Positions 14,643-50,415 of a stretch of 64,000 nt of DNA are shown one piece after another (the first letter of the stretch is position 1; the number at the start of each line of letters is the position of its first letter). The DNA lies in the NCBI GenBank assembly GCA_964441425.1, contig CAYTXC010000006.1:49727-113726 (forward strand), written 5' to 3'. Made by a program: the position numbers and the translations under genes. The DNA comes from an uncultured Sphingobacterium sp. GTDB taxonomy: Bacteria; Bacteroidota; Bacteroidia; Chitinophagales; Chitinophagaceae. Below the pieces are notes generated by a model. That model saw only the letters and a list, made by a program, of their open reading frames with translations, was not told the DNA's origin and did not search any database.

Positions 14643-14739
14643 AATGGGTATTAAGATAATTAAAATTGTCAAATTTACTATTCGTTAGAATTAGTGAATT
14701 AGCACATGAGCCAATTAGCTAATTTCTTACCTTGCAGCT

Positions 14740-16518
14740 ATGGACAAATTCATTGTTTCCGCCCGTAAATATCGACCACAAAATTTTTCAACTGTAGTGG
14801 GACAGTCGCATATTACCACCACGTTAAAAAATGCCATTCGAAATAAGCAACTGGCACATGCATTCTTATTTTGTGGGCCACGTGGGGTAGGTAAAACAAC
14901 TTGTGCAAGAATTTTGGCCAAAACGATTAACTGCATGAACCTCGATGCTGAGGGTGAAGCCTGCAATGAATGTACATCGTGCATATCGTTCAATAATGGA
15001 TCATCATTGAATATTCACGAGCTGGATGCTGCCAGCAACAACTCAGTAGATGATATCCGAAACCTGGTTGATCAGGTCCGATTTGCACCTCAGGCTGGCG
15101 AATATAAAGTGTATATCATCGATGAGGTTCATATGTTGAGTTCTTCTGCGTTCAATGCATTTTTGAAAACCCTGGAAGAGCCTCCTGCCTATGCAAAATT
15201 TATTTTAGCTACCACTGAAAAGCATAAAATTCTTCCAACTATACTTTCTCGTTGTCAAATTTTTGATTTTAAGCGAATAACCAATCAAGATACCGTTGAT
15301 CATCTTCAGGAGATCTGTAATAAAGAAGGAATAAAAGCTGAAAAATCTGCCCTACATGTCATCGCTCAAAAAAGTGAAGGCTGTATGCGTGATTCATTAA
15401 GTATAATGGACAAGATCGCCAGCTTTACCAATAATCAACTGACCTATACAAATACCTTAGAGCATCTAAATATTCTAGATGAAGATTATTTTTTCCGACT
15501 TCTCGAAAATATGCAACAACAAAAACTGGCAGAAGCACTGCTCGTTTTTGAAGACATCAACAGAAAGGGATTTGAAGGAGAAATGGTATTAAATGGGTTT
15601 GCAGAGTTTATCAGAAATATTTTAGTTTGCCGAGATACCAAAACGGTATCATTACTGGAAGCAGTTGAGGGATTCAGAGAAAAATATCAGGAAGCTGCAA
15701 AAACAATTTCACTTTCTTGGTTAGTATCTGCCTTGCAAATTTTAAATGAAGCGGAGATTAATTATAAACAAGCAAGAAATCGTCGTTTACACGTAGAGCT
15801 TTGCTTTATAAAATTGACTTATCTACATCAGGCCATCGAAGTTGCTCAGGATGGTGCTAAAAAAAAAATGGATAGTGTAAAACCTGTCGCATTCAGAAAA
15901 ATCGGGTTTGTAGAGGAAAAATCAGGAGCGGTATCAGCACCTACTGCTTCATCAACAACCGCTGCTCCAAAATTGACCATTAAAGAAACTAAAGAGGAAA
16001 AGCAAACTGCTCCTAATTCAGTATCGCCGAATCAGACTAAACCTGTAAGCTTACCCCCTCAGCCTAAATTTGGAAATCTTCAAAAAATAAGAGATCAGAT
16101 TTCCCGTAAACCACAGGTTGAACAGAACCAGATACCCTTAACTCAGGAAAAACTTCAGCAGGCCTGGGAACTATATGTCGATAAATTATTGAAGGCCAAT
16201 AATCCATCAGCTGCAACGAATTTCAGATTAGCTGTTCTTAAGATCCTGGATGATCAAAACTTTGATATCATAACCGAGGGAAATATCCAGCAAAAATTTA
16301 TAGAATCAGAAAGAGGAGGATTGATCGAACATTTGCAAACCTTCTTCAACAATAAAAATCTCAAGTACCATTTGATCTTGGAAGAAAATGAAGAAACTAA
16401 AGATAAAACCCCTAAAGACCGTCCAATTCCACCAAGGGAACAATATCAAAAAATGGTAGAAATGTACCCTCTTATAAAGGATTTGAGGGATCGGTTAGGT
16501 ATGGATCTAGACTATTAA
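14740..16518 (+). CDS. dnaX: DNA polymerase III subunit gamma/tau
   Basis: ARKYRP, GPRGVGKTT, DEVHML, SRC motif. Low-complexity linker after about residue 375 and a C-terminal domain; A10 run at 15859-15868. Confidence 0.97.
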   Translation: MDKFIVSARKYRPQNFSTVVGQSHITTTLKNAIRNKQLAHAFLFCGPRGVGKTTCARILAKTINCMNLDAEGEACNECTSCISFNNGSSLNIHELDAASNNSVDDIRNLVDQVRFAPQAGEYKVYIIDEVHMLSSSAFNAFLKTLEEPPAYAKFILATTEKHKILPTILSRCQIFDFKRITNQDTVDHLQEICNKEGIKAEKSALHVIAQKSEGCMRDSLSIMDKIASFTNNQLTYTNTLEHLNILDEDYFFRLLENMQQQKLAEALLVFEDINRKGFEGEMVLNGFAEFIRNILVCRDTKTVSLLEAVEGFREKYQEAAKTISLSWLVSALQILNEAEINYKQARNRRLHVELCFIKLTYLHQAIEVAQDGAKKKMDSVKPVAFRKIGFVEEKSGAVSAPTASSTTAAPKLTIKETKEEKQTAPNSVSPNQTKPVSLPPQPKFGNLQKIRDQISRKPQVEQNQIPLTQEKLQQAWELYVDKLLKANNPSAATNFRLAVLKILDDQNFDIITEGNIQQKFIESERGGLIEHLQTFFNNKNLKYHLILEENEETKDKTPKDRPIPPREQYQKMVEMYPLIKDLRDRLGMDLDY

Positions 16519-16613
16519 TAAAAGCAGAGGTTTTAATCCATGAATCCGCTACTTCGTAATCCGTAAATTTGTAGTATTTTCGGCCTCCGAAACCAAAAAT
16601 AAGCCCTTTTCAT

Positions 16614-18200
16614 ATGGCAGAAGTGATCAGAATGCCGCTTTTGAGCGATACCATGACGGAAGGAAAGATCGTCAAATGGAATAAAAAAGTTGGGGATAGT
16701 GTTAAAAGTGACGACGTCCTTGCAGATGTTGAGACCGATAAGGCCACCATGGAAGTAGTTGGTTATGTAGATGGTACTTTACTCTATATTGGTGTGGAAG
16801 AAGGCAAAGCTGCCAAGGTTAATGATGTCATCGCCATTATTGGTAAACCTGGTGAAGAGTTTAATTCTCTTCTGAATAGCGAGCCAAAAGCTGATGTAGC
16901 TGCAGCTCCCATTGCACCTGCGCCTGCTGCATCTTCTGCTCCAACCGTTACACCTGAAGAATTAGGCGTTACAGTTATCCGTATGCCATTATTAAGTGAT
17001 ACGATGACGGAAGGGAAAATCGTTAAATGGAATAAAAAAGTTGGCGATTTTGTTAAAAGCGATGATGCCATTGCGGATGTTGAAACCGATAAAGCGACCA
17101 TGGAAGTGGTTGGATATGTGGAAGGCACATTACTTCATATAGGTGTACCAGAAGGTGAGGCTGCAAAAGTGAATGGGGTGATCGCAATCATTGGTAAAGC
17201 TGGTACGGATATATCAGGGTTACTGGCATCGTTAGACCAGCCTCAATCGGCAGCTCCGGCCAGCACACCTTCAACTGCTCCAGCTGCAAGTTCAACTCCA
17301 ATAACAGCTGCAGCACCAACATTTTCCTCTACTGATGGTAGTCGGGTTAAAGCTTCCCCTCTGGCAAAACGACTGGCTGAAGAAAAGGGTATCAATATCA
17401 ACCAAATTCAGGGTTCTGGAGATGGGGGACGCATCATTAAAAAGGATGTAGATTCTTATCAGCCAGGTACCGCGGTAAGTCAAGTAGCAAACATTCCTGC
17501 ATTTGTACCAAGTGGAGAGGAAGGCTACACGGATACAGAGAACTCATCAATGAGAAAAACGATCGCACGCAGGCTTGGCGAAAGTTTATTTACTGCACCA
17601 CATTTCTATCTCACCATGGAGATCAACATGGATAATGCAATTGGTGTCCGTACTCAACTTAATGAACTCAGTCCGGTGAAAATATCTTTCCAGGATATGA
17701 TGATCAAAGCATGTGCAATGGCTCTACGTCAGCACCCGGCAGTGAATAGTAGCTGGATGGGAGATTTCATCAGAACCTATCATCATGTTCATATCGGCTC
17801 TGCCATAGCATTACCTGATGGCCTGATCGTTCCTGTTATTCGTCACGCCGATCAAAAATCACTTTCTCAGATCGCAGCAGATGCAAAAGAATTGTATGCA
17901 AAAGCACGCGATAAAAAAATACAACCTGCAGATTTCAGTGGAAACACATTCACCATTTCTAATTTAGGCATGATGGAAATTGATGAGTTCACCGCTATCA
18001 TCAATCCGCCAGACAGCTGTATCCTTGCCGTTGGACGGATCAAAGAAGTGGTTGTAAGAAAAGGTGATGGGTTTGGAGTAACCAATGTAATGAAGGTTAC
18101 TTTGAGTTGCGACCATCGAAGTGTTGATGGTGCTGTTGGTGCAGCTTTCCTCCAAACGCTAAAGAAATATATGGAGAACCCAGTGGCTATGCTCATTTGA
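16614..18200 (+). CDS. pdhC: Pyruvate dehydrogenase E2 dihydrolipoamide acetyltransferase with two lipoyl domains
   Basis: Two VETDKATMEV lipoyl motifs, ASPLAKRLA E3-binding domain, DHRSVDGA catalytic motif. Confidence 0.93.
   Translation: MAEVIRMPLLSDTMTEGKIVKWNKKVGDSVKSDDVLADVETDKATMEVVGYVDGTLLYIGVEEGKAAKVNDVIAIIGKPGEEFNSLLNSEPKADVAAAPIAPAPAASSAPTVTPEELGVTVIRMPLLSDTMTEGKIVKWNKKVGDFVKSDDAIADVETDKATMEVVGYVEGTLLHIGVPEGEAAKVNGVIAIIGKAGTDISGLLASLDQPQSAAPASTPSTAPAASSTPITAAAPTFSSTDGSRVKASPLAKRLAEEKGININQIQGSGDGGRIIKKDVDSYQPGTAVSQVANIPAFVPSGEEGYTDTENSSMRKTIARRLGESLFTAPHFYLTMEINMDNAIGVRTQLNELSPVKISFQDMMIKACAMALRQHPAVNSSWMGDFIRTYHHVHIGSAIALPDGLIVPVIRHADQKSLSQIAADAKELYAKARDKKIQPADFSGNTFTISNLGMMEIDEFTAIINPPDSCILAVGRIKEVVVRKGDGFGVTNVMKVTLSCDHRSVDGAVGAAFLQTLKKYMENPVAMLI
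16623..17200 (+). repeat. Intragenic duplication of the lipoyl domain (about 16623-16850 and 16974-17200)
   Basis: VIRMPLLSDTMTEGKIVKWNKKVGD...ETDKATMEVVGYV occurs twice, with many synonymous differences. Confidence 0.9.
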
Positions 18201-18207
18201 CATTAAT

Positions 18208-18576
18208 ATGAGTGGGAATAAGCAAACATTAGTAATTGGAGCCTCCGATAATCCTGACCGATATAGCTTTATGGCTATTAACCTACTGAGGCAACATCAC
18301 TACACTGTAAAAGCAATTGGAAGGAAACAAGCTTTAGTGTTGGATGTACCCGTTGAAACTGCGAAACAAGATCTAGAGGATATCCATACCGTTACCCTTT
18401 ATATCAATCCTGACCATCAGAAAGAATTTCAAGAATATATTCTTTCATTGCATCCCAAACGTATCATTTTCAATCCGGGAACAGAAAACCCAGCATTTGA
18501 AGAAAAAGCTAAAAGTGCAGGCATTGAAACCATGCAAGCTTGTACACTGGTTCTTTTACAAACTGGTCAATATTAA
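18208..18576 (+). CDS. CoA-binding domain protein
   Basis: TLVIGASDNPDRYS, TVTLY, RIIFNPGTEN, ACTLVLL. Confidence 0.88.
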   Translation: MSGNKQTLVIGASDNPDRYSFMAINLLRQHHYTVKAIGRKQALVLDVPVETAKQDLEDIHTVTLYINPDHQKEFQEYILSLHPKRIIFNPGTENPAFEEKAKSAGIETMQACTLVLLQTGQY

Positions 18577-19094
18577 TTGACTGCTTTATTGGCGCAACTA
18601 CTGCTGGCAAAAGCCTCAGGCTTGGCTTTGAATGCAAAACCCATCCCTAGAATGTACCCCATTGCTTCGCGTAATGCTTCATTACTTTTAAAACTTGGAT
18701 TGGTATTGATATCGGCATGTACTTCCATATCCACATCATATAAAGTAAAAAGATCGCAAAGCTCATAGGCAATCTCGATACTCTTGGCAACTTCAACCAG
18801 CATTCTCTCCTTTATAGAAAAGGACTGCTGTGTGCGCTCATTGTAAAGGAACATAAATCCGCCACGACCTTCCCTCAGAAAAACGATGACAGTAGCAAAT
18901 TCCGTTTCGGCTCCTTTGACCTGTGAATCTGTTCCAATGCAGACTTTAAGCTTATTACCGGCTTCTGTTTCGCGACGAATAGCATCTTCCACTGCATCTA
19001 TAATCGGCTCGGAGATCTGATCACCGTTAAATCGTCGCCACAATGCTTTCCGCTTTTCTAAGCCAAGTTGATCGATAGGACTATACATAGACAA
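18573..19094 (-). CDS. Ribonuclease H-like YkuK (DUF458) family protein
   Basis: CIGTDSQ, ERMLVEVAKSIE, VHADIN and KPEAFASS motifs. Start uncertain. Confidence 0.8.
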   Translation of the reverse strand: MSMYSPIDQLGLEKRKALWRRFNGDQISEPIIDAVEDAIRRETEAGNKLKVCIGTDSQVKGAETEFATVIVFLREGRGGFMFLYNERTQQSFSIKERMLVEVAKSIEIAYELCDLFTLYDVDMEVHADINTNPSFKSNEALREAMGYILGMGFAFKAKPEAFASSSCANKAVN

Positions 19095-19174
19095 GGGTTT
19101 GTTGAATTTACGATTATTAAAACCCTCTGCATGTAAAGGAGATCACATTTTTTCCCCAATGAAAATCGAAGCCG

Positions 19175-19792
19175 CTAAGTATTAAGAATTTCAGCTATGA
19201 ATGATAATAATTTATTTCGACCGGTAAATTTCACCGCACTTGTCACAAAATGAGGCGGCAATTCCGCCCAAGTCTCCTTTAAACTGCGCATAAAAGCATC
19301 TACATTACCCGCTACTATTTTTTGAGTTTCTTTATCTGCCTTGGTGAATACCAATGAAAAGGGTACTCTTAACCGACCCAGTTTATTTACAAAATCCAGA
19401 TCTACTTGCTGAGGCTTGTGCCGGCCATCGATCAAGACAAATAAATTAGCTAGGTTTTCACGCTTCACAATATAATTTTCGATCATCTTCTCCCAAGATT
19501 TTCGCTGAGACTGGGACACTTTTGCAAAACCATAACCTGGAAGATCTACTAAATACCACCTATACTGCTGGCCTTTTTCATCTCCAGAGAGCACATCAAA
19601 ATGATTGATCAATTGTGTTTTACCAGGAGTACCTGATGTTTTGGCCAATGATTTCTGCTGCACGATCATATTGATCAGCGAGGATTTCCCAACATTGCTT
19701 CGGCCGATGAAAGCAAATTCCGGTCGGTCTGCTTTCGGACATTTGTCCACTTCAGGACTGGAAATCACGTATGTAGCGGTATGTATATTCAT
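19175..19792 (-). CDS. engB: Ribosome biogenesis GTP-binding protein EngB/YihA
   Basis: GRSNVGKSSLIN, DLPGYG, TKAD. ATG 19792 (MNIHTA). Confidence 0.96.
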   Translation of the reverse strand: MNIHTATYVISSPEVDKCPKADRPEFAFIGRSNVGKSSLINMIVQQKSLAKTSGTPGKTQLINHFDVLSGDEKGQQYRWYLVDLPGYGFAKVSQSQRKSWEKMIENYIVKRENLANLFVLIDGRHKPQQVDLDFVNKLGRLRVPFSLVFTKADKETQKIVAGNVDAFMRSLKETWAELPPHFVTSAVKFTGRNKLLSFIAEILNT

Positions 19793-19870
19793 GATCAGAG
19801 ACCAAATACGAAAGTATTGTGAAAATTTTGGTTTAAGGATTTCGACAAAGATATCTGTTATCTTTGCCAA

Positions 19871-20620
19871 ATGCCGAAATATGCGCATGATAATGTTGTT
19901 CCATTTGAAGATTCCAACGCTTCAAAAAAGGAGCAGGTGGCCAAAATGTTTGATCAAATCGCAGGCAGGTATGATTTCCTAAACCGATTTTTGTCGGCCG
20001 GGATAGATATCTATTGGAGGAAAGTTATGCTGAAAAAGCTGAAACCCCTTCAACCTAAAGTCATACTGGATGTAGCTACCGGTACAGCAGATGTGGCTTT
20101 GATGGCGGAAAGAATGTTAAAGCCGGAACAGATCATTGGAATTGATATTTCAGTAGGCATGCTGGATCTGGGCCGTAATAAAATTGAACAAAAAAAGCTA
20201 TCACATATCATCACCCTTCAAAAAGGCGATAGTGAGCATATAGAATTCCCGGATAACCATTTTGATGCAGTGACCGTGGCTTTCGGCGTTCGTAATTTTG
20301 AAAACCTTGAGAAAGGACTTACTGAAATTTTACGGGTTCTTAAACCCGGCGGACAACTTTGTGTTCTCGAATTTTCTAAACCAAACTTACCAGGTATTGA
20401 ACAACTCTACCATTTGTATTTAGGTATCATCGCTCCTGAGATCGCTAAAATGATTTCAAAAAATAAAAAAGCGTATGCATATCTCAACGACTCAGTAAGA
20501 GCTTTCCCAGAAGGAAGAGCATTTACGGATATCATGGAAAAAACAGGTTTTAAAGACATCACATGCAAACGGTTAAGTTTAGGAATCAGCAGCTTGTACA
20601 CGGGAAAAAAGCCGTACTGA
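19871..20620 (+). CDS. menG: Demethylmenaquinone methyltransferase MenG/UbiE
   Basis: MFDQIAGRYDFLN, LDVATGTAD, AFGVRN, LKPGG. Confidence 0.93.
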   Translation: MPKYAHDNVVPFEDSNASKKEQVAKMFDQIAGRYDFLNRFLSAGIDIYWRKVMLKKLKPLQPKVILDVATGTADVALMAERMLKPEQIIGIDISVGMLDLGRNKIEQKKLSHIITLQKGDSEHIEFPDNHFDAVTVAFGVRNFENLEKGLTEILRVLKPGGQLCVLEFSKPNLPGIEQLYHLYLGIIAPEIAKMISKNKKAYAYLNDSVRAFPEGRAFTDIMEKTGFKDITCKRLSLGISSLYTGKKPY

Positions 20621-21324
20621 CCATTACCCTCTTCTTGTTTTCCATTATAGGTTTTACACAAGAACGAGGTGAAATGAATTTGTCAGATCATGACGATAAG
20701 CGTTATTATTTTGGTATTGTACTAGGATATAACACCTCACACTATAATACCACACATCACCCTTATTTTCTGCAACGAGATACGATTATGTCGGTTGAAT
20801 CTCTTAATTCAGGCAGAGTACACTTAGGCATCATGGCCAACTGGCAGGTAAATAGATTTTTTGATCTGCGGTTTTATCCATTGCACCTCATATTCTCAGA
20901 AAAGAAATTTAGATATACACAACGTGTGGCCAATTCAGGAGATGATCAACTCACGAATTTCCGTAATGTTGAATCCATCGTGATGAGCTTTCCACTGCAA
21001 GTCCGGCTCAAAAGTGATCGCATTCATAATTTTCGGGTATATACGCTTGCAGGTGCCAAATATGATTTTGATCTGGCATCAAATGCAGGCGCAAGAAATG
21101 CGGATGAACTGATGAAAGTTAAGAAAGGTGATTGGGGATTAGAGGCGGGTATCGGATTTCAATTCTTTTTTAAATACTTCATCTTATCGCCTGAAATAAA
21201 AATCAGTCAGGGTATGTCGAATGTGCATGTGCGTGATGAAGCCCTAAAATACTCCAATGTAGTGGATCAGTTGAAATCGAGAATGATCTTATTCTCGCTA
21301 CATTTTGAAGGAGGAGGTAATTAG
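20563..21324 (+). CDS. porT: PorT/SprT-family outer membrane beta-barrel (T9SS component)
   Basis: Hydrophobic N-terminus; HDDKRYYFG, alternating beta-strand pattern, FILSPEIK; the menG-porT linkage is typical of Bacteroidota. Start uncertain (58-nt overlap with menG). Confidence 0.75.
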   Translation: MQTVKFRNQQLVHGKKAVLTITLFLFSIIGFTQERGEMNLSDHDDKRYYFGIVLGYNTSHYNTTHHPYFLQRDTIMSVESLNSGRVHLGIMANWQVNRFFDLRFYPLHLIFSEKKFRYTQRVANSGDDQLTNFRNVESIVMSFPLQVRLKSDRIHNFRVYTLAGAKYDFDLASNAGARNADELMKVKKGDWGLEAGIGFQFFFKYFILSPEIKISQGMSNVHVRDEALKYSNVVDQLKSRMILFSLHFEGGGN

Positions 21325-21333
21325 CCAAAAATT

Positions 21334-22668: not shown

Positions 22669-22670
22669 CC

Positions 22671-23990: not shown

Positions 23991-24080
23991 TGTTTTCTAC
24001 AAATGAGTTTGCTTTTTTTCTGTTACCATCAACATTATTTCAACAAACTAAATAAGCTTGTGACCAAATAGCTTTACTCC

Positions 24081-25625
24081 ATGCTTGTAAAAACCATGGG
24101 TAGCGCTGTTTTTGGGATTAATGCCACTACCATCTCCATCGAAGTAAGCTGGACGCCAAAAGGGCGTATGTACTATATAGTAGGCTTACCAGATAATGCG
24201 ATCAGAGAAAGCTTTCAACGAATAGAAAGTTCCATTAAATCCATTGGGTACCACATGCCACGAACCAAGATCGTGGTCAACCTCGCTCCTGCTGATATCA
24301 AAAAATCAGGTTCAGCTTTTGATCTTCCCATTGCTATTGGAATTCTTGCCGCATCTGGACAATTGGAATACAATGATGCGTTCACGGATTATACCATAAT
24401 GGGAGAACTTGGACTTGATGGATCAGTTCGTCCCATTAGAGGATCACTTCCTATTGCATTACAAAGTCGAAAAGAGGGATTTAAAGGATTGATCATTCCC
24501 AAACAAAATGCACCAGAAGCGGCTGTATTAGAAGGCATCAATATTTTCGGAGTCGATCATATAACAGATGTAATCGACTTTTTTAGATCTCAACGAACTT
24601 CACTTATACCTATAAAAGTCAATACATCAGAAATTCTTTCGATAGAAGAAGAAACTATCGGAGATTTTATGGATGTAAAAGGTCAGGAAAATATCAAAAG
24701 AGCATTAGAGATAGCTGCGGCAGGCGGGCATAATGTCATTCTCATCGGCCCGCCTGGTGCAGGAAAAACCATGCTGGCGAGGCGTTTCCCTTCCATATTA
24801 CCTCCCCTCACGTTGGAAGAAGCCATTGAAACAACGCGAATTCACAGTGTAGCCGGACAATTAAAAGAAGACAGTAATCTGGTGATCTCAAGACCATTCC
24901 GTTCACCACACCATACCATATCATATACGGCACTCGTTGGTGGTGGAAGCATTCCACAACCCGGTGAAATTTCATTAGCACATAATGGTGTTTTATTTTT
25001 AGATGAACTTCCAGAATTTCATCGTTCTGCTTTGGAAGTGATGCGACAACCCTTAGAAGAAAGAAAAGTAGTGATCAACAGAACAAGATCCGGTGTAGAA
25101 TTCCCTGCATCTTTTGTTCTAATCGCTTCCATGAATCCTTGTCCTTGTGGATATTTTAATCATCCCGAAAAAGAATGTACTTGTCCGCCTGGTACTGTTC
25201 AAAAATACCTAAGTAAAATTTCCGGGCCGCTGCTCGACAGGATTGATATGCATATTGAAGTAACTCCTTTGCCTTTCAATGCTTTAAATGATATGCAGAC
25301 GGGCGAATCTTCTTTAACTATACGAGAACGAGTTAAACTTGCCCGACAGAAGCAGATTCTCCGTTTCAGAGATTATCCCTCCATTTATTGCAATGCACAA
25401 ATGGGAAATAGCCTGATCAGAGAATACATTATCCTCAACAAAGCAGCAAAAGCTCTATTGAAGCAAGCTATGGAAAAACTATGTTTATCTGCAAGAGCTT
25501 ATGATCGCATCACAAAAATGTCTCGAACCATCGCCGATCTGGAGGATTCAGATGAAATTAGAACAGAACATGTAGCGGAGGCCATTCAATACCGCAGTTT
25601 AGACCGAGATTCCTGGGGCAGATGA
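24081..25625 (+). CDS. YifB/ComM Mg-chelatase-like AAA+ ATPase
   Basis: Lon-C-like N-domain (VGLPDNAIRES, NLAPADIKKSGSAFDLPIA), GPPGAGKT, LDELPEF, NPCPCG, SGPLLDRID. Confidence 0.93.
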   Translation: MLVKTMGSAVFGINATTISIEVSWTPKGRMYYIVGLPDNAIRESFQRIESSIKSIGYHMPRTKIVVNLAPADIKKSGSAFDLPIAIGILAASGQLEYNDAFTDYTIMGELGLDGSVRPIRGSLPIALQSRKEGFKGLIIPKQNAPEAAVLEGINIFGVDHITDVIDFFRSQRTSLIPIKVNTSEILSIEEETIGDFMDVKGQENIKRALEIAAAGGHNVILIGPPGAGKTMLARRFPSILPPLTLEEAIETTRIHSVAGQLKEDSNLVISRPFRSPHHTISYTALVGGGSIPQPGEISLAHNGVLFLDELPEFHRSALEVMRQPLEERKVVINRTRSGVEFPASFVLIASMNPCPCGYFNHPEKECTCPPGTVQKYLSKISGPLLDRIDMHIEVTPLPFNALNDMQTGESSLTIRERVKLARQKQILRFRDYPSIYCNAQMGNSLIREYIILNKAAKALLKQAMEKLCLSARAYDRITKMSRTIADLEDSDEIRTEHVAEAIQYRSLDRDSWGR

Positions 25626-27478: not shown

Positions 27479-27871
27479 TCAATCTTCTACATCTTTGAGT
27501 ACAACTTCGAGGGCTTCCAAACTCAGGTATATCTCAATGAAAGAACAGATCAATGAAAAAAGTAAGCTCAACAAACTACCTGCAAAAACAAATTTGGCAA
27601 TAACCATCCAACCCTCATAGATTGCATACATACAGATCACACAAAGTAAAAAACTAAATACCCCTGCACCTTGCATAAATCGTATATAACGCAAGCGGGT
27701 ACGAAAGTGCTTGATCTGCTTTAAGGCATTTTCTTTATTCTTATCGTTGGTATAATCGTCATGCAGTTTTCTTACTAAATTGGCAATTGCCAAAAAACGA
27801 TTGGTATAGGCTAATAGTAAAAGACTAATTGCTGGGAAAAGCAGGGCTGGCGTATTAAGGTTGATATCCAT
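27479..27871 (-). CDS. DUF2721-like small membrane protein
   Basis: TPALLFPAISLLLLAYTNRFL...IRFMQ pattern; three hydrophobic segments. Confidence 0.75.
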   Translation of the reverse strand: MDINLNTPALLFPAISLLLLAYTNRFLAIANLVRKLHDDYTNDKNKENALKQIKHFRTRLRYIRFMQGAGVFSFLLCVICMYAIYEGWMVIAKFVFAGSLLSLLFSLICSFIEIYLSLEALEVVLKDVED

Positions 27872-27886
27872 TCATCAAAGATACAG

Positions 27887-27920
27887 ATCAACCTCCAAGG
27901 TAACTACCTTGGAGGTTGAT
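27887..27920. repeat. Perfect 15-bp inverted repeat just downstream of the lipoprotein gene
   Basis: ATCAACCTCCAAGGT-AACT-ACCTTGGAGGTTGAT; no clear U-tract on either side. Confidence 0.85.
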
Positions 27921-28475: not shown

Positions 28476-30882
28476 TGTGTTTCATTTTTTGTTTTATAAT
28501 CAAAGGGACTTTAATACGAAGTGAAATATTTCTTCCCATATCATCCGCGAAATAGCGAAATGCATTCATATAATCTCGGTATCGGATATTGAATAGATTG
28601 GTCACCGATAAAATAATACTCAAGTCACGATGCTGCACATCTAATTTGGTACCGAATTCTATTCCGGATAATGTATATGCTGGAGGTGGAGCAGCATAGT
28701 CGGAAGTTTTAATAGTCCCACCCCCAGTAACAGGAAGTTCAATATTACCAGTTGAAGGAACACGAGTTTGTTGACGCACATGCTGCACAGATGCTTTCAT
28801 ATAAGATTGACGGAATTTTCTTCCATCTTTTAAAAGATATTCAGCACTCACTTCGTATCTGTCAGCAGGCATTTGTATCAGCCAATCGCTGGTTACGAGA
28901 TCCTTTGCACGCAGTAAACTTCCCTTAGCCTGCATTCGCAGATGATGATCAACTAGGTAAGAAAGCTGAATATCTATTCCATTCAACCTTGCATCCGTTT
29001 GATCAAAGGCAAAAGTTGGGAAAGCACCGCGAATCGTCAATTGTGGTGGAAAAGAAGGCCTCAAATAAATGAAGTCCGAGATTCGTTTATGGTAAACATC
29101 TATATCAAAAAATAATTTTTCGTCGTGGTATTCAATTGCCGATGCAATACCTAAAGACCTTTCCGTTTGGAGATCAGAACGACCTGTTTCAATTCTTGCT
29201 GCTCCATGATGCAACCCATTACTGAATAATTCGTTGACTTGTGGAGCGCGCCAGGCCGTTGTTCCAGACAATACAAATTTCCAATTATCTTGATGATAAT
29301 TCAGTCCAATATTTCCGGATAACCCATTGAAATTTCTTTTACCATATGCTATTCCCGGAGCCAATTCTCCTCCCATTAAAGTATGGAAAGGTGCCGCATC
29401 ATTATCAGTTATGTTTCGAATATTTTTATAATCAAATCGAGCTCCGCCTTCTATTACCCAATTACCAATTGTATATTTCTCCGCAATAAAAAGACCAAGA
29501 GAAAGTGATTGATAATTCGGAATAAAATATCGGTATGTATATTGATTGATCTGATACATTCCGCTGATACCAACAGAACCCTTCAAGCCTTTACCTCCAA
29601 AATGATCCAGCACAGCATCTAGCCCTGCAGTATGTAATCCTAATTGTAATTGTGGAGCTATACGGGTAGTTGAACGTACAATATCATATTCTCTACGTTG
29701 ATTGAATTGGTATGATCCAGTTACATTTATTCTTGCCGAATGGCCTATATCCTTGAATGATTTCCACTTTAGCAAATGATGCATTACCTGTTGATATGGA
29801 CGATCGATACGATAGGTAAATGGCACATTTTTTATATATGTCGGTGGCTCACCTAAACGGATAGCTTCCATCAAATCCGTGACATTTCCAATGTGAGAGC
29901 CTGAGAAAATCCCAATACGTGTACTGAACAAACTATAAAAAAATTCAGAACCGGAATGCTGCTTTCGCTTACCAACTGTAGCTGACATATTCAATTCCTC
30001 TATTCCTGAATTCGCCAACCCATAATCTGGTGTGCGTGCATTTCCTCCTCGCTTTGCGGTTCCCTGTAACCTCCAAGCAATATCTTTTTTAGCATGAGGA
30101 CTGCCCTCAATCATAGCAGATAAAACACCTTGTCTATTGTTGCTGAAAAAAGCGGTGTTCCATTCCCCATTAACGGTAGCAGTACCATAAGGAAGAAGTT
30201 TAGGTTCTACCAACACTACTCCACCTATGGCATCGCCTCCATAACGAATAGACGAAGCCCCCTTAATAACCGTCAAACGATTCGCTAAAAAAGGATCAAT
30301 TTCCGGAGCATGTTCACTACCCCATTGCTGACCTTCCTGTCGAATGCCATTATTTAGGATTAATACCCGATTACTATGTAAACCATGAATAACGGGTTTA
30401 TAGATATTATTTCCTGTTTGTAATGTAGTTACACCATTTATAGTCCGCAAAGATTCACCCAAACTTAATCCACGAGTGGCATCCAATTGTCTGCCTTTCA
30501 ATTCTGCAACTACAGCAGTGGTACCAGCACCAGCTGATCCACGTACGATTACTTCCTGAAGCTCAGCAGCAGCATGTCCCAATTCAATATCCCTGTGCAG
30601 ATCTCCTTTAATATCAATATGTATAACCTCTTCCTTGCAACTTATGTGGGAAATGACCAATGTATAACTACCCGGACATAACCCCTTCACGCTATACTCC
30701 CCTTTCCTAGTTGTGACCACAGAACGATTCAGTTCACGCACCAAAATAGTTGCATCTGCCAATCGCGCGCGCGTATCTAAATCGCTTACGACTCCAGAAA
30801 CCTCCAGCACACATTGCGCCGAACTGAATGCCGGAAACAAGGTCACCCCTAACAGAAACAAAAAAAAGGTGCATGTTCGCAT
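28462..30882 (-). CDS. TonB-dependent receptor with N-terminal carboxypeptidase-regulatory-like domain (candidate metal uptake)
   Basis: Signal peptide ending SA-Q; plug motif NGIRQEGQQWGSEHAPEID, VIKGASSIRYG; C-terminal GRNISLRIKVP. Confidence 0.92.
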   Translation of the reverse strand: MRTCTFFLFLLGVTLFPAFSSAQCVLEVSGVVSDLDTRARLADATILVRELNRSVVTTRKGEYSVKGLCPGSYTLVISHISCKEEVIHIDIKGDLHRDIELGHAAAELQEVIVRGSAGAGTTAVVAELKGRQLDATRGLSLGESLRTINGVTTLQTGNNIYKPVIHGLHSNRVLILNNGIRQEGQQWGSEHAPEIDPFLANRLTVIKGASSIRYGGDAIGGVVLVEPKLLPYGTATVNGEWNTAFFSNNRQGVLSAMIEGSPHAKKDIAWRLQGTAKRGGNARTPDYGLANSGIEELNMSATVGKRKQHSGSEFFYSLFSTRIGIFSGSHIGNVTDLMEAIRLGEPPTYIKNVPFTYRIDRPYQQVMHHLLKWKSFKDIGHSARINVTGSYQFNQRREYDIVRSTTRIAPQLQLGLHTAGLDAVLDHFGGKGLKGSVGISGMYQINQYTYRYFIPNYQSLSLGLFIAEKYTIGNWVIEGGARFDYKNIRNITDNDAAPFHTLMGGELAPGIAYGKRNFNGLSGNIGLNYHQDNWKFVLSGTTAWRAPQVNELFSNGLHHGAARIETGRSDLQTERSLGIASAIEYHDEKLFFDIDVYHKRISDFIYLRPSFPPQLTIRGAFPTFAFDQTDARLNGIDIQLSYLVDHHLRMQAKGSLLRAKDLVTSDWLIQMPADRYEVSAEYLLKDGRKFRQSYMKASVQHVRQQTRVPSTGNIELPVTGGGTIKTSDYAAPPPAYTLSGIEFGTKLDVQHRDLSIILSVTNLFNIRYRDYMNAFRYFADDMGRNISLRIKVPLIIKQKMKHNEEK

Positions 30883-30887
30883 GCACC
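30860..30887 (-). terminator. Intrinsic terminator-like hairpin overlapping the receptor start codon
   Basis: Minus strand GGTGCATG-CGAA-CATGCACC-T8. The ATG at 30882-30880 lies in the 5' arm. Confidence 0.7.
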
Positions 30888-30904
30888 AAAAATAAGAAAA
30901 AAAT

Positions 30905-32106: not shown

Positions 32107-32190
32107 AACTTCCTTATTTATGTTCTTAAAGGTACTCAAAAAATAAATTAGTTGCACAAACAACCAGTTTTTTCGTTTTATCTTAGCAGC

Positions 32191-33222
32191 ATGTATGATT
32201 TGATTCGGAATATATTGTTCCGTTTTGATGCTGAGCGGGTTCACTATTTTTCTATGAACAGTCTTCGGTATCTATGTGCCATTCCAGGGCTTCGATCAAT
32301 GCTCACGGCTTTATTTAAACCCAAAAATATACCTGTAACTGCATTTGGACTCAACTTCCGCAATCCAGTAGGATTAGCAGCTGGTTTTGATAAAAATGCT
32401 ACCTACCTCAATCTTCTGGATATGATGGGATTTGGACACGTGGAGATTGGAACGGTAACACCTCTGGCACAGGATGGAAATGATAAACCCAGATTATTTC
32501 GCTTACCTGCAGACAAAGCCATTATCAACAGAATGGGATTCAATAATGATGGTATGGATATCATTTCCAAAAGGCTACAACATTGGAGAAAAAAATATCC
32601 GCAGTCAAAAATGATTATTGGTGGAAATATCGGAAAAAATAAAGTGACCCCAAACGAAGAAGCCTGGAGCGATTACGTTAAATGTTTTAATGCACTTCAT
32701 CCTTTTGTAGATTATTTTATTGTGAATGTTAGTTCGCCAAATACACCTGGATTAAGGGAACTGCAGGAAAAGCCTGCATTAGAAAAAATATTTCATGCAT
32801 TAAAAGCTGAAAACGAAAAATTAAAGAAACCACTTCCGCTATTATTAAAAATTGCACCAGACCTTACGAATGATCAGCTGAATGATATCTGCACGTTGGC
32901 TATAGAATTAAAATTAAATGGATTGGTAGCCACCAATACAACCATTTCACGAGAGAACCTGTCTAGATCATCTGTTGAGCGTGCAAAAGAAATTGGTGCG
33001 GGTGGATTGAGTGGAAAACCCGTTCTGAAAAGATCAACTGAAGTACTGGATTATCTTTATAAGCATACTAAAGGAGAAATTGCCTTGATCGGATCAGGAG
33101 GCATATTCACGAGTGAAGAGGCTAAAGAAAAAATGCATCACGGAGCGAAGCTCGTTCAAGTATGGACAGGATTTGTATATGAAGGACCTTTTATAGTAAA
33201 AAATATTTGTAAAGATTTATAA
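32191..33222 (+). CDS. pyrD: Quinone-dependent dihydroorotate dehydrogenase (class 2)
   Basis: GLAAGFDKN, NRMGFNN, NVSSPNTPGLR, KIAPDL, GGLSG. Confidence 0.96.
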   Translation: MYDLIRNILFRFDAERVHYFSMNSLRYLCAIPGLRSMLTALFKPKNIPVTAFGLNFRNPVGLAAGFDKNATYLNLLDMMGFGHVEIGTVTPLAQDGNDKPRLFRLPADKAIINRMGFNNDGMDIISKRLQHWRKKYPQSKMIIGGNIGKNKVTPNEEAWSDYVKCFNALHPFVDYFIVNVSSPNTPGLRELQEKPALEKIFHALKAENEKLKKPLPLLLKIAPDLTNDQLNDICTLAIELKLNGLVATNTTISRENLSRSSVERAKEIGAGGLSGKPVLKRSTEVLDYLYKHTKGEIALIGSGGIFTSEEAKEKMHHGAKLVQVWTGFVYEGPFIVKNICKDL

Positions 33223-42111: not shown

Positions 42112-42136
42112 ATCATATGCTGAGGAAAAATTTAAC

Positions 42137-42168: not shown

Positions 42169-42222
42169 GCCCAATTGGGCTTAGATTTTTAACTTTGGTA
42201 TTCATCAGTTAAATGAATTAAC

Positions 42223-42432: not shown

Positions 42433-42452
42433 TCCTTTAAATCTTCTTTCTT

Positions 42453-44925: not shown

Positions 44926-44948
44926 TTTGTCAACACTTCAGTGTTTCA

Positions 44949-46229
44949 TCAAGATAACACCTTTCGTATGGCAGATCCCTTAAGTAAACATTCTTCATAT
45001 TCATTTTCTGGGTTGCTCAATGCAGTTATACCCGAGCCAGACATGAATGATAAATAGTTTGTAGCTGCATTATATAAAATACTACGTATCACTACATTCA
45101 TATCGAAATCCCCTTCTGGTGTTATATACCCTACCGATCCAGAAAAAAGTCCTCTAGGCCCATTTTCAAAAACTCGGATCAAGTCTAAGACACGATGCTT
45201 AGGTGCCCCAGTCATACTTCCCATAGGAAAACAAGCATCCATGATATCCATAAAGGATATATTCTTCTTAACTTTTCCTTCAATAGTAGAGATCATTTGA
45301 TAAACCTGAGGGTATGCATATATGCCAAATAATTCAGAAACCTTAACTGTTCCCTCCTGGCATACCCTTGAAAGATCATTACGTACCAGATCTACCACCA
45401 TTACATTCTCCATTTGATCTTTTTGGCTGTGCTGCAAAGAATGGCGTAATGCCGCATCCCGTTGAGGATTTTCAGGATCACGTCGAATAGTACCCTTCAT
45501 AGGTTGTGAGATCAGCTTCTCCCCTTTTTTACATAAAAACCGTTCAGGACTGGCACTGAGCAAATAAGCACTTTCAGATTTATAAAAAACCGAGAATGGA
45601 TTAGGGGATATGGTACATAATGTACGCCAAGTCTGCAAAGGATCTATTACCGCATGTTCACTGAAAAACTCCTGACAAAAATTAATTTCATAACAATCGC
45701 CTCGTTGAATATGCGCTAATAATCCATTTATTTTTTCTAGATATGTCTCCCTTGATATAGCGGGAATAGTATTCACCGATTTTCTATTGACGCTATCGGT
45801 TACCGATTCTTGAATCAGTTGATGATAGACGTCCTCATGATCCATTTCAAGTGATCCAATTTCTATATTATCGCTTCTGAATTTGATTACATACTGAGGA
45901 ACAAAAAAGGTTAAGGGAAGAAATCCCGTTTTGTCGCTTGCCAATGGGATCTCTTTTTTTAGTATAGAAAGCGATTCAAAAGAAAGATGGAAAAATACCC
46001 AATCCTTTTGGCTATCTATGAAGGAATTGATCGTTTCAAGATCAGTATCCTCTGAAAATGGCAGTTTTTTTATGCTGCCCGCTCCTAGTAATATTTCCTG
46101 AAAATTGAGTACGCTGGAATAGTTATGATTAGCCAGAAAACAACAAATGTTGAACCTGTTTGCCCAGTTCAACATTTGCTGATGTAATTTCTCCCTATTG
46201 GAGACAGGAAATGTTTTAAATACTCTCAA
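44949..46229 (-). CDS. Aminodeoxychorismate/anthranilate synthase component I family (PabB-like)
   Basis: GDCYEINF, SASPERF, PMKGT, ENVMVVDLVRNDL, PMGSMTGAPK, DMNVVIRS. Confidence 0.88.
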   Translation of the reverse strand: MRVFKTFPVSNREKLHQQMLNWANRFNICCFLANHNYSSVLNFQEILLGAGSIKKLPFSEDTDLETINSFIDSQKDWVFFHLSFESLSILKKEIPLASDKTGFLPLTFFVPQYVIKFRSDNIEIGSLEMDHEDVYHQLIQESVTDSVNRKSVNTIPAISRETYLEKINGLLAHIQRGDCYEINFCQEFFSEHAVIDPLQTWRTLCTISPNPFSVFYKSESAYLLSASPERFLCKKGEKLISQPMKGTIRRDPENPQRDAALRHSLQHSQKDQMENVMVVDLVRNDLSRVCQEGTVKVSELFGIYAYPQVYQMISTIEGKVKKNISFMDIMDACFPMGSMTGAPKHRVLDLIRVFENGPRGLFSGSVGYITPEGDFDMNVVIRSILYNAATNYLSFMSGSGITALSNPENEYEECLLKGSAIRKVLS

Positions 46230-46231
46230 GA

Positions 46232-46642
46232 TTAATAATCTTCATCGTCGTCATCAAAACCGCCGCCATCATCAAAAAATCCAAGATCCTTGAATTCATC
46301 ATCGATAGCGAAATCATCGTCACTCGATTTCTTCGAACCGCCAGTTTTTTTACCAGAAGATTTTGATTTGGGAAGATCAAACTCTTCAAAGTCAGGATCC
46401 CAATTTTCATCATCCTCAACTTTATCCCAATCATCATCAACTTCATCGATTTCGTCATCATCATCTTCTTTAGCAGAGGAGCTTTTACGAGATGATGTAG
46501 ATGTTATCTCATCAGTATCTTCAAAATCATTCTCCTCATCCTCTTCTATTTTTTTCTTAGAACGGGATGCAGACTTAGAAGAGGTTTCAGGATCCTCAGC
46601 TTTCTTCGTTATACCCTTTTTCGATTTTTCAGATTTAGCCAT
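46232..46642 (-). CDS. Low-complexity K-rich/acidic hypothetical protein (136 aa)
   Basis: MAKSEKSKK... with long D/E tracts interspersed with W/F. Lies between purA and the pabB-like gene on the same strand. Confidence 0.8.
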   Translation of the reverse strand: MAKSEKSKKGITKKAEDPETSSKSASRSKKKIEEDEENDFEDTDEITSTSSRKSSSAKEDDDDEIDEVDDDWDKVEDDENWDPDFEEFDLPKSKSSGKKTGGSKKSSDDDFAIDDEFKDLGFFDDGGGFDDDDEDY

Positions 46643-46717
46643 TTGAGCAGGATTAATCACCGTAAAATTTCTATCTAATTTTTATATAGCCAAATTTTTT
46701 CTGAAAATTTTTCCATC

Positions 46718-47983
46718 CTATTTCATACGGATGATTTGATCTCTTCCTGGTCCATTAGAGACATAAGAAATTTCTACTCCCAAATATGCGTTAATATGAT
46801 CAATATAATTCTTCATTAATACAGGTATATCCTCTGCATTTTTAAGTTGAGTAATATCCGTTTTCCAGCCGGGGAATGAACGCAAAACGGGTTCAATCAC
46901 TGACTTCAGCATTTGATAGGGCACTTCTTTTTTCGCTTCACCATTTACCATGTAACTTTCGCACACGGATAATGATTCGAAGCTATCCAGTACGTCCGCT
47001 TTGGTCATCACAATTTGGGTAACCCCATTTATCATACAAGCAAATTTCAATGCCACGAGATCGATCCATCCACAACGACGTGGACGTCCGGTGGTGGCAC
47101 CAAATTCACTACCTAATTTTCTTAATTCTTCACCAGTCTCATTTTCCAGTTCAGTTGGAAAAGGTCCGCTACCTACTCTTGTACAATATGCTTTAGAAAT
47201 ACCGATCACCTCCCGGATTTTCTGAGGCGGCACACCTAAACCGGAACATACCCCAGAAGTAGTAGTGCTGGATGAAGTTACAAAGGGGAAGGTCCCAAAA
47301 TCTACATCGAGCATACTTCCCTGTGCACCTTCTGCCAATACCTTAGCGCCTTTACTGATTTTTTCGTTTATGAAATATTCGCCATTTACAATGGTTAATT
47401 CACGCATAAATTCAAGAGCCTCAAAGAACTCTTCTTCCCACTCCGAAATGTCTTCATTGAAATGAAAAGAGTCCAGCATACGCTGATGTTTCAATCTCAA
47501 CTTGATATATTGAGAAGTGAAATTTTTATCTAGTAAATCACCAACACGCAAACCATTTCGGCCAGTTTTATCCATATAGGCAGGGCCGATACCTTTGAGT
47601 GTAGAACCAATCTTCTCATTCCCTTTTGATAATTCAGAAGCTTTATCTAATGCACGATGCGTGGGTAAGATGATATGGGTACGTTCAGAAACAAATAAAT
47701 TTTTTCTGCAATCCACCCCCATTTCGGCCACTTTCTGTGCTTCTTTACGCAGGGTAACGGGATCTAATACCACTCCATTGCCAATGAGGTTGGCAATGCC
47801 TTGATGGAATACTCCGGATGGGATCTGATGTAAGACCACTTTTTTCCCATCAACGTATAGAGTATGGCCCGCATTTGGGCCACCCTGAAAGCGGGCAATC
47901 ACATCATAGGATGGAGCAAAATAATCCACAATTTTCCCCTTTCCTTCATCGCCCCACTGGAGGCCTAAAATGACATCAACCAT
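46718..47983 (-). CDS. purA: Adenylosuccinate synthetase
   Basis: GLQWGDEGKGKIVD, GGPNAGHT, GATTGRPRRCGW. TATCTTTG box at 48003-48010. Confidence 0.99.
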   Translation of the reverse strand: MVDVILGLQWGDEGKGKIVDYFAPSYDVIARFQGGPNAGHTLYVDGKKVVLHQIPSGVFHQGIANLIGNGVVLDPVTLRKEAQKVAEMGVDCRKNLFVSERTHIILPTHRALDKASELSKGNEKIGSTLKGIGPAYMDKTGRNGLRVGDLLDKNFTSQYIKLRLKHQRMLDSFHFNEDISEWEEEFFEALEFMRELTIVNGEYFINEKISKGAKVLAEGAQGSMLDVDFGTFPFVTSSSTTTSGVCSGLGVPPQKIREVIGISKAYCTRVGSGPFPTELENETGEELRKLGSEFGATTGRPRRCGWIDLVALKFACMINGVTQIVMTKADVLDSFESLSVCESYMVNGEAKKEVPYQMLKSVIEPVLRSFPGWKTDITQLKNAEDIPVLMKNYIDHINAYLGVEISYVSNGPGRDQIIRMK

Positions 47984-48025
47984 GTATCTATTTTAAAGGT
48001 GCCAAAGATAGTATCTAAAAGTCAA

Positions 48026-50278
48026 CTATACAGATTCAGTATCAAATCGCTCAACAGAATGAATACCGGACAATTGTTTCAAGCGGGTAAACAAATTCTC
48101 TAATTCCTCTTTGTCGTGTACAAAAAGTTTAATTGTCCCCTTGAAGACCCCTTCCTGGGCTTCAATGGTCAACCCCGCAATATTAATTCTCAACTCACCG
48201 GATATCAGATTCGTGATCTTGTTGATCACCCCCACATCATCCAGTCCAACAATATTGATACCGGTCAAAAAAGATATTTCTTTATTCTTCGCCCATTTTG
48301 TTTTCACCACCCTATGTCCAAACTGGGATAATAATCGGGTGGCATTTGGACAATTCGTACGGTGAATGATCAGCCCTTTACCCGTAGATACAAATCCAAA
48401 TACATCATCGCCAGGAATGGGCTTACAACAGTTTGCTAAGGTGTAAACGATCTTATCACTGGATTCTCCAAAAATGATCAACTCGGTATCTTTTTTAGAA
48501 ACAGCTTTCCCTGATTCTGTACCATCCCATTTATGATCGTGTTCCTGTTTTGCCGGCTTGGGAGGTTCCAACTTATCCCCTAATACATGAAACTCCTTTA
48601 ACTCATGCAAGTCGATAGTCTTAATGGCAATACGATAATAAAGGTCAAGCGCAGAGGATAGTTTATAAAAAGCGGTCAGGATTTCAATATTATGAGTGTG
48701 AAATCCCGCCCCCATATTTTCCAATTTACGTTGCAAAAGATACTTCCCATCCTCTGCCACTTTTCGTTTTTCCTCTTTTAACGCATCTTTTATTTTGCTC
48801 TTAGCCTTAGCTGATACTACAAAGTTCAACCAATCCTCTGAAGGTTTTTGCTTGTTCGAAGTGATGATCTCGATCTGGTCTCCGCTTCTTAATTCATGTG
48901 AGATCGGAACAAGTTTATGATTCACTTTTGCACCTATACATTTAGTACCAACAGCACTATGGATCGAGAAGGCGAAATCGAGAGCACTCGACCCTTTAGG
49001 AAGCATCTTTACATCACCTTTTGGCGTATATACATAGATCTCTTCAGTAAGGAATGATGTTTTAAAATCATGCAGAAAATCAATAGAACCAATATCCTGA
49101 TTGGATAGCATTTCACGGATCTGACCAAACCACTGATCAAATCGATCTTCATCTGCACCGCCCTCCTTGTATTTCCAATGAGCCGCAAGTCCCTTCTCAG
49201 CGATCTCATTCATTCTTTTTGAACGGATCTGCACCTCTACCCATTTACCTTGAGGGCCCATCACGGTGGTATGCAGAGCCTCATATCCATTTGACTTCGG
49301 ATTACTCAGCCAGTCGCGTAAACGTTCGGGTGAAGGAGTGTACATATCTGTAATAAGCGAATACACTTTCCAACAATCCTCTTTTTCCCTTTCTTGAGGA
49401 GAATTCAAAATGATTCTGATAGCAAAAAGATCATACACTTCTTCAAAACTCACCCCCTTTTTCTTCATCTTATTCCAAATAGAATGTATGGATTTTGGAC
49501 GGCCCTGAATTTCATATTGAAATTCTGCTTTATCCAACTTCTCTTTGATCGGTTTGATGAATTCGTTGATGTACCGAGTTCGTTCACGTTTTGTTTCAGC
49601 CAGTTTTCGAGCGATCTCTTTGTAAGTAGTAGGCTCCAGGTATTTCATCGACAAGTCTTCCAACTCTGTCTTGATATTGTAAATACCCATACGATGGGCG
49701 AGCGGAGCATAAACATAAACTGTTTCTGAAGCGATCTTCAATTGTTTCTCCTGCTTCATACTGTCCATCGTTCGCATATTATGCAAACGATCAGCCAGTT
49801 TGATCAAAATAACTCTTGGGTCATCTGTAAGCGTTAACAATATCTTCTTGAAATTCTCTGCCTGCTGGGTGGAGTTATTGTCCACCACATGAGAGATCTT
49901 GGTCAGTCCGTTAATAATCCGAGCGATTTCACTTCCGAATTCACGTTCTACATCTTCTACAGATACATCGGTATCTTCAACCGTATCGTGAAGAAGTGCA
50001 CAAATACTGGAACGTACCCCAAGACCAATTTCTTCTACACAAATTCTGGAAACAGCTATAGGATGTAGAATATAGGGCTCCCCACTTTTACGGCGCATGG
50101 TTTTATGAGCATCAACAGCCAATTCAAAAGCTCTGCGCACCAGTTCTTTATCTCCTGGTTTCAATTTAGGCTTCAGTACCCTAAGCAGTCCGCGGTATTG
50201 ACGTACGATCTCTTTTTTCTCCTGCTCTTCATTAAGGGTATATTTTGGCACTGACGTATGTTGCTCCAACATCTCCAT
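48026..50278 (-). CDS. relA: Bifunctional (p)ppGpp synthetase/hydrolase (long RSH)
   Basis: HD motif (LLHDTVED), synthetase motifs GRPKSIHSI and YDLFAIR, TGS (YTPKGD) and ACT domains. Confidence 0.95.
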   Translation of the reverse strand: MEMLEQHTSVPKYTLNEEQEKKEIVRQYRGLLRVLKPKLKPGDKELVRRAFELAVDAHKTMRRKSGEPYILHPIAVSRICVEEIGLGVRSSICALLHDTVEDTDVSVEDVEREFGSEIARIINGLTKISHVVDNNSTQQAENFKKILLTLTDDPRVILIKLADRLHNMRTMDSMKQEKQLKIASETVYVYAPLAHRMGIYNIKTELEDLSMKYLEPTTYKEIARKLAETKRERTRYINEFIKPIKEKLDKAEFQYEIQGRPKSIHSIWNKMKKKGVSFEEVYDLFAIRIILNSPQEREKEDCWKVYSLITDMYTPSPERLRDWLSNPKSNGYEALHTTVMGPQGKWVEVQIRSKRMNEIAEKGLAAHWKYKEGGADEDRFDQWFGQIREMLSNQDIGSIDFLHDFKTSFLTEEIYVYTPKGDVKMLPKGSSALDFAFSIHSAVGTKCIGAKVNHKLVPISHELRSGDQIEIITSNKQKPSEDWLNFVVSAKAKSKIKDALKEEKRKVAEDGKYLLQRKLENMGAGFHTHNIEILTAFYKLSSALDLYYRIAIKTIDLHELKEFHVLGDKLEPPKPAKQEHDHKWDGTESGKAVSKKDTELIIFGESSDKIVYTLANCCKPIPGDDVFGFVSTGKGLIIHRTNCPNATRLLSQFGHRVVKTKWAKNKEISFLTGINIVGLDDVGVINKITNLISGELRINIAGLTIEAQEGVFKGTIKLFVHDKEELENLFTRLKQLSGIHSVERFDTESV

Positions 50279-50415
50279 ATATCAAATGTACGAATAGACA
50301 TTGGCGAATTTTTGTTTAAAAAGCCAAAGTTTTCAGGCAATTTTGGGAACTATTCCTTTTTTTACCTGCTAAAATTTACAAAATCAAACCTTTTACGTAT
50401 TTTTGCGCCCCCTTA

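Follow-up and report, generated by a model that had tools for sequence, protein, structure and literature searches.

In a 64,000-nt stretch of DNA (hereafter, the window) from a freshwater Chitinophagaceae bacterium, registered in GenBank as an uncultured Sphingobacterium sp., seven genes that are first in their transcription units carry an octamer resembling the -7 promoter element of Bacteroidota that ends exactly 4 nt before the ATG. The first-pass annotation of this DNA had proposed that transcription start (+1) lies on or next to the A of these AUG codons, giving a leaderless class that includes dnaX and relA. This proposal is supported by the geometry of the sites, the statistics of the distance between box and ATG, and conservation in orthologues, and on this basis the mRNAs of the box-N4-ATG genes probably start at the AUG. 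Where +1 lies and how these mRNAs are translated is what we infer from these observations.

The housekeeping sigma factor of Bacteroidota would recognise the octamers as its -7 element, which has the sequence TAnnTTTG or the tolerated forms TAnnTTCG/A, TAnnTTTA, and TAnnTTGY. RNA polymerase is expected to start 4-5 nt past such an element; in Flavobacterium johnsoniae, the box and the start are 4-5 nt apart (PMC6847099). With the published 4-nt spacing, a box ending 4 nt before the ATG would therefore put +1 on the A of the AUG, which would be the first transcribed base of an mRNA having no 5' untranslated region (UTR). Translation would then take the leaderless route, in which the ribosome and the initiator tRNA recognise a 5'-terminal AUG, and this would replace the A-rich upstream context used by the leadered genes of the phylum. 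The arrangement seems to be heritable for particular, mostly low-expression housekeeping genes (dnaX, relA, menG, pyrD, yifB, and the genes for a DUF2721 protein and a TonB receptor), and evolutionary drift of the spacing from 4 to about 9 nt would correspond to a leader of 0-5 nt.

The box-N4-ATG sites of the window

The seven 15-mers reported in the first-pass annotation are all present at the positions and on the strands listed in Table 1, and every ATG opens the named long open reading frame (ORF). The Pfam domains agree with the names: DnaX, UbiE/MenG, Mg-chelatase-like YifB/ComM, DUF2721, TonB-dependent receptor, DHO dehydrogenase, and RelA/SpoT. The description of the octamers as -7-type boxes holds in the strict form (TAnnTTTG) for four of the seven, namely menG, DUF2721, the TonB receptor, and relA, but those of dnaX, yifB, and pyrD are variants. 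Similarly, the site described for yqgE, with a gap of 3 nt, was found, but its match to the box is weak.

Table 1. Positions of the box-N4-ATG sites and of two related boxes in the window
Gene	Position	Strand	Arrangement
dnaX	14728..14742	+	variant box TACCTTGC-AGCT-ATG, TAnnTTGY type
menG/ubiE	19859..19873	+	strict TATCTTTG-CCAA-ATG
yifB/comM	24069..24083	+	variant box TAGCTTTA-CTCC-ATG
DUF2721 gene	27869..27883	-	strict TATCTTTG-ATGA-ATG
TonB-dependent receptor	30880..30894	-	strict TATTTTTG-GTGC-ATG
pyrD	32179..32193	+	variant box TATCTTAG-CAGC-ATG
relA/spoT	50276..50290	-	strict TACATTTG-ATAT-ATG
yqgE/algH	7710..7723	+	TAAATTGG-TAT-ATG, 3-nt gap, weak candidate
leadered engB-like gene	19846..19853	-	divergent strict box TATCTTTG, d = 53 to a 205-codon ORF

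The number of nucleotides between the end of the octamer and the start codon ATG is denoted d. A box at d = 4 precedes 7 of the approximately 33 first-in-unit genes of the window. The window contains 45 strict boxes; all four that have an ATG at d = 4 open ORFs of 130-806 codons, and at any other distance from 0 to 60 no more than two ORF-opening ATGs occur. Genes that had been named as comparators with ordinary leaders indeed have the box farther upstream (glpK, d = 27; pheT, d = 28; purA, d = 19; rplS, d = 20). Proximal boxes are also dense in the 10 kb that follow the window in this genome, where they are found at ruvB (d = 4), a P-type ATPase gene (d = 5), and tsaE (d = 7). The closest relatives of the YifB protein are from Chitinophagaceae metagenome-assembled genomes (Ferruginibacter, Sediminibacterium, and others) with identities of at most 73%, and the DNA and RNA runs containing the window are freshwater and riverine metagenomes.

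Distance between the box and the start codon

A histogram of the box-to-ATG distance had been suggested as a check, with a sharp peak at about 4 nt as the supporting outcome. Such a mode, sharp at the level of protein families and specific to ATG, is present in 1.27 Mb of related Chitinophagaceae DNA. This main set consists of the window and 80 Chitinophagaceae loci around yifB from GTDB species genomes. Genes were called from the first ATG of non-overlapped ORFs of at least 120 codons, which gave 999 genes in 506 families, and the histogram was restricted to the 702 first-in-unit genes (367 families). Protein families, not genes, were counted to deal with pseudo-replication by orthologues. 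In addition to the strict box, the variant classes TAnnTTTH and TAnnTTCR were used; the dnaX box belongs to the TAnnTTGY type.

With the strict box, 12 families of first-in-unit genes have d = 4 against a mean of 1.5 elsewhere (Poisson p 8e-8), and the distances 0, 1, 2, and 3 have 0, 1, 0, and 0 families, respectively. When the variant boxes are included, the number at d = 4 is 29 families (62 genes) against a mean of 5.8 (p 6e-12); both variant classes show the same isolated spike at this distance. The peak is also seen when every strict box is paired with every ATG that opens at least 100 codons: by family, there are 18 cases at d = 4 and 14 at d = 5, no more than 12 at the other distances from 0 to 60, and 3-6 at each of the distances 0-3. 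For ORF-opening ATGs the count is 98 at d = 4 versus 15-58 at other distances. ATGs that open no ORF show no enrichment at d = 4. Furthermore, none of the codons GTG, TTG, CTG, ATA, ATT, ATC, AAG, and ACG gives a peak at d = 4 in the pooled loci. The net excess at d = 4 amounts to approximately 3-8% of the first-in-unit families in these loci, which is within the published range for leaderless genes.

It should be mentioned that the box can itself make an in-frame TAA, TAG, or TGA at d = 4, so that calling genes from the first ATG after a stop might create the spike. This artefact was rejected, because the distances 1, 7, and 10 share the frame and have no peak, and because the spike is the same when that criterion is dropped.

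An independent replicate set was made of 79 metagenome loci around relA (1.04 Mb). It contains four families at d = 4 with the strict box versus a mean of 0.81 (p 0.009), and seven with any variant versus 2.7 (p 0.02).

Promoter features and conservation in orthologues

The base that directly follows the octamer is C in 53% of the d = 4 class and in 44% of the leadered class; in this, the boxes at d = 4 resemble the leadered promoters found in these genomes. Leadered genes have an A-rich context at -10 to -13 relative to the start codon. In the d = 4 class, the box fills positions -12 to -5 instead; these genes are without the ordinary upstream translation context because the box occupies those positions.

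The spacing had been expected to be conserved in orthologues. A box close to the ATG, at 2-11 nt, is in fact kept in orthologues of dnaX, menG, pyrD, DUF2721, yifB, and relA while the flanking sequences have diverged, but the exact N4 spacing is not kept. Judged from these alignments, the conserved trait is the fusion of a putative promoter with the start codon, with a predicted leader of 0-5 nt, and not N4 as such.

In the case of dnaX, TACCTTGC-N4-ATG is found in four of nine sequences, namely in the window and in three orthologues of 74-85% identity. The N4 spacer is AGCT in the window and ACCT, AGGT, or GGAT in the orthologues, and the flanks have otherwise diverged. In the remaining five orthologues, the box is TAACTTGC (9 nt from the ATG) in two, TACCTTGC (11 nt) and TACATTTG (5 nt) in one each, and absent in the last. 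For menG, a -7-type box lies 3-9 nt from the ATG in 19 of 21 family members, and for pyrD a TAnnTT(T/C)N box lies at d = 6-8 in four of six orthologues. The DUF2721 gene has a variant box at d = 4 in four of seven orthologues, and one is leadered (d = 15). The TonB receptor has d = 4 in three of four family members. Among 81 yifB orthologues, a variant box is at d = 4 in 11 and at d = 3-9 in 15; in many others, xAnnTTTAC and the ATG are separated by 2-4 nt, and a subset is clearly leadered, with TATCTTCA approximately 20 nt upstream. Finally, in 61 of 74 distinct upstream regions of relA, TAnnTT(T/C)G is located 2-8 nt from the ATG with a mode of 6 (43 cases); in a few orthologues, which are leadered, the box is at 16-52 nt. 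Each of the variant boxes of dnaX, yifB, and pyrD either recurs in orthologues or is of a variant class that has the same peak at d = 4.

The conserved N-termini begin at the aligned ATG for DnaX (M(D/E)KFIVSARKYRP), YifB (MLVKTFGSAV), MenG, PyrD, and the DUF2721 protein, and the query coverage is 100% in all 120 non-partial DnaX sequences among the matches listed. The ATG beside the predicted promoter thus appears, on protein alignment, to be the true translation start of these five genes.

A public annotation of DnaX (GCA_040404005.1, JBBAJO010000044.1) gives a protein of 622 aa that begins 33 codons upstream of the conserved MEKFIVSARKYRP. In this genome the conserved ATG is preceded by TAACTTGC-N9, which points to an over-extended start call at a near-leaderless gene.

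Transcripts and alternative explanations

The TonB receptor gene also bears on the transcript start, and points in the same direction as the other evidence. The terminator hairpin of the upstream thiolase gene (30860-30894, minus strand) has a 5' arm whose final 3 nt are the ATG of the receptor. In read-through RNA, the terminator folds into an 8-bp stem followed by U8 (-13 kcal/mol, z -4.9), whereas an RNA starting at the A of the receptor AUG forms no hairpin (-1.7 kcal/mol). Therefore, in a leadered transcript the start codon would be buried and termination would occur within codons 7-9. According to this model, the terminator would act on upstream transcripts only, and expression of the receptor from its ATG would need a transcript that starts at or next to the AUG. 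The 5' arm holds the end of the -7 box, the spacer, and the AUG, and the U-tract encodes the residues FFL of the signal peptide of the receptor.

RNA was available as assembled contigs from metatranscriptome runs at low depth (2-17). The ATGs of menG, pyrD, and relA are crossed by no contig in four low-depth runs each, although contigs fall short at some leadered genes too. The first contig starts inside the ORF, 18 nt (also 46 nt) from the start for menG, 74 nt for pyrD, and 49 nt for relA, so that the resolution is 18-74 nt; no contig was found upstream of the pyrD ORF in these low-depth metatranscriptomes. As for leadered genes, the contigs of the engB-like gene end at 19799/19800. At a 456-aa leadered gene at 50588, four metatranscriptomes have contigs with starts at 50415-50483, a distance of 105-173 nt upstream of the ATG, which indicates a long leader. 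Several short contigs of higher depth pile up at 50415-50468; they might come from a small RNA in its own right or from a leader with secondary structure. The RNA contigs are consistent with leaderless transcripts but not decisive.

Several observations weigh against a start at the AUG. Contigs of such low depth cannot discriminate between leaderless and leadered transcripts. The peak is much weaker in the replicate set than in the main set. The exact N4 is unconserved, as relA has N6 in 43 of 74 relatives and the distances in menG, pyrD, and dnaX range from 4 to 11. A literature search for transcription start site (TSS) maps or reports of leaderless mRNAs in Chitinophaga, Cytophaga, and Sphingobacteriia found none. 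The three remaining points, namely the count in the window alone, the departure of the dnaX, yifB, and pyrD boxes from the consensus, and the lack of a visible -33 element, bear on particular alternatives as follows.

In the window alone, the strict pattern occurs 4 times where 1.5 are expected, and 7 of 100 shuffles reach 4, which is not significant. Together with the degenerate boxes at three of the seven genes, this would fit a chance co-occurrence of an AT-rich octamer and an ATG in AT-rich intergenic DNA. Such a coincidence is contradicted by the family-level statistics, both strict and with variants, and by the nearly empty distances 0-3; moreover, the arrangement is kept in orthologues despite unrelated flanks. 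It is considered extremely unlikely.

No clear motif for a -33 element was seen in the position profiles of either the d = 4 or the leadered class. In addition, hairpins or inverted repeats adjoin the boxes of DUF2721 and the TonB receptor. Both features might mean that the octamer acts in translation or regulation, for example as an operator or an RNA signal, and merely resembles a -7 box. However, the -33 element is weak in the mapped promoters of F. johnsoniae as well (PMC6847099), and the same octamer with the same C is found 15-45 nt upstream of ordinary leadered genes. An RNA signal located 5' of the AUG would also need a promoter farther upstream, whereas the available gaps of 48-97 nt have no other candidate box for most of the genes. 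A role other than that of promoter is thus highly unlikely.

It might also be supposed that the proximal boxes are genuine but secondary promoters and that most transcripts are leadered, arising from upstream promoters or read-through, or that translation starts at a downstream codon, which would leave the annotated ATG within a short leader. In line with this, boxes at d = 4 also precede genes separated from a co-oriented gene ahead of them by less than 40 nt (8 strict matches in 4 families); ruvB, just beyond the window, is an example. The leadered orthologues of yifB, relA, and DUF2721 described above are clear cases, and in relA the first ATG is followed, two codons on, by another in the same frame. 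On the other hand, a spike that is ATG-specific and at exactly 4 nt would be unexpected if the ATG were irrelevant, and the conserved N-termini of DnaX, YifB, and MenG begin at the box-adjacent ATGs, not at downstream codons. The lack of contigs across the ATGs of menG, pyrD, and relA may speak against leadered transcripts, and a leadered transcript of the TonB receptor would be terminated early, as described above. We regard this explanation as rather unlikely, and transcription from the AUG itself is preferred.

Comparison with known leaderless mRNAs and neighbouring features

The class had been presented as not well described for this lineage. This overstated the novelty, since TSS maps of Bacteroidota give proportions of 3.7%, 5.5%, and up to 13%. 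For Chitinophagia, no report was found in the literature search. In F. johnsoniae, 13% of the probable promoters have a leader of 10 nt or less (PMC6847099); in Bacteroides thetaiotaomicron, 3.7% have a 5' UTR of less than 10 nt (PMC7366714); and in Flavobacterium psychrophilum, 5.5% are leaderless (PMC9723704). GeneMarkS-2 assigned 90% of Bacteroidetes to its group B, which is leadered and does not use Shine-Dalgarno (SD) sites (PMC6028130). The genes described here thus belong to a class that was known before as a minority of Bacteroidota genes, and they are a real instance of it that is conserved.

Compared with the mapped leaderless minority (PMC9723704, PMC7366714, PMC6847099), the present class is from the same phylum and has the same promoter type and a similar size. 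Those studies give only a proportion, whereas here the class is deduced from promoter geometry in Chitinophagia, where no TSS map exists; it is also locally denser, as noted for the window, and is conserved gene by gene across the family. A broader interpretation, in which leaderless initiation serves a fifth to a third of the transcription units and not a marginal 4-13%, and has become a fixed trait of growth and stress regulators (relA, dnaX, ruvB, and tsaE), is unlikely. If true, it would define a translationally distinct gene set, the output of which would shift jointly when leaderless translation is favoured or disfavoured.

The boxes can be compared with the sigma-ABfr promoters of Bacteroidota, which have a -33 TTTG located approximately 19-20 nt upstream of a -7 TAnnTTTG element (Bacteroides fragilis, F. 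johnsoniae, B. thetaiotaomicron; PMC6847099, PMC7366714). The present octamer does not differ from theirs (TAHHTTTG), also in the near-absence of G at the n positions, and +1 would again follow after 4 nt; the C after the box is shared here with the leadered promoters of the same genomes. Unlike in the sigma-ABfr promoters, the element abuts the start codon and the -33 element is not detectable, and the variants TAnnTTCG/A, TAnnTTTA, and TAnnTTGC are frequent and conserved. The last of these recalls motif SM5 of F. psychrophilum, TAnnTTGY at -12 to -5, which is linked to genes for lipopolysaccharide, amino-acid scavenging, and gliding (PMC9723704). The dnaX box TACCTTGC and the TAACTTGC of its orthologues fit this motif at the same position relative to the putative +1.

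The leaderless transcriptomes of Actinobacteria and Deinococcus-Thermus (GeneMarkS-2 group C; PMC6028130, PMC3160421) show the same fixed short distance between promoter and start codon, the same spike in the histogram, and a 5'-terminal AUG. They have a Pribnow-type -10 box, 20-40% or more leaderless genes, and, in mycobacteria, GTG starts. In contrast, the class described here has a -7 box of a different sigma type, a peak for ATG only, and the size of a minority.

These results would extend the leaderless class to Chitinophagia, an ecologically common class of Bacteroidota without TSS maps, and suggest that in core genes, relA and dnaX among them, the joining of promoter and start codon is inherited individually for each gene. 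Box-N4-ATG may also serve as a cheap sequence rule for correcting start-codon calls in the phylum; the public DnaX is one example, being 33 residues over-long since the gene caller passed over a start of this kind. Furthermore, the genes are candidates for testing how the SD-independent ribosomes of Bacteroidota act on 5'-terminal AUGs.

Some neighbouring features should be mentioned. Two identical strict boxes stand back to back on opposite strands at 19846-19866, in the arrangement CAAAGATA-acaga-TATCTTTG with 5 nt between them, and face the engB-like gene and menG, respectively. The engB-like gene probably starts in reality at the ATG at 19792 (205 codons) and not at 19888, where its first ATG lies; the 18-nt overlap of the two longest ORFs at this locus arises because the engB-like call is over-long. 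Another back-to-back pair may exist at relA. In many soil relatives, a conserved GGCTGCAAATGTAG is located approximately 45 nt upstream of the relA box, which reads on the opposite strand as a strict TACATTTG(C) box and is therefore probably the promoter of the divergent neighbour.

A perfect 15-bp hairpin at 27887-27920 of the window ends 3 nt upstream of the -7 box of DUF2721; the upstream lipoprotein gene probably has its 3' end structure here. Approximately 6.7 kb past the right end of the window, a RecQ-like helicase gene of the same genome has its start called at a GTG that follows a TAAATTCG box by 3 nt. Such a start, if real, would be near-leaderless without being AUG, for which the pooled data otherwise give no support.

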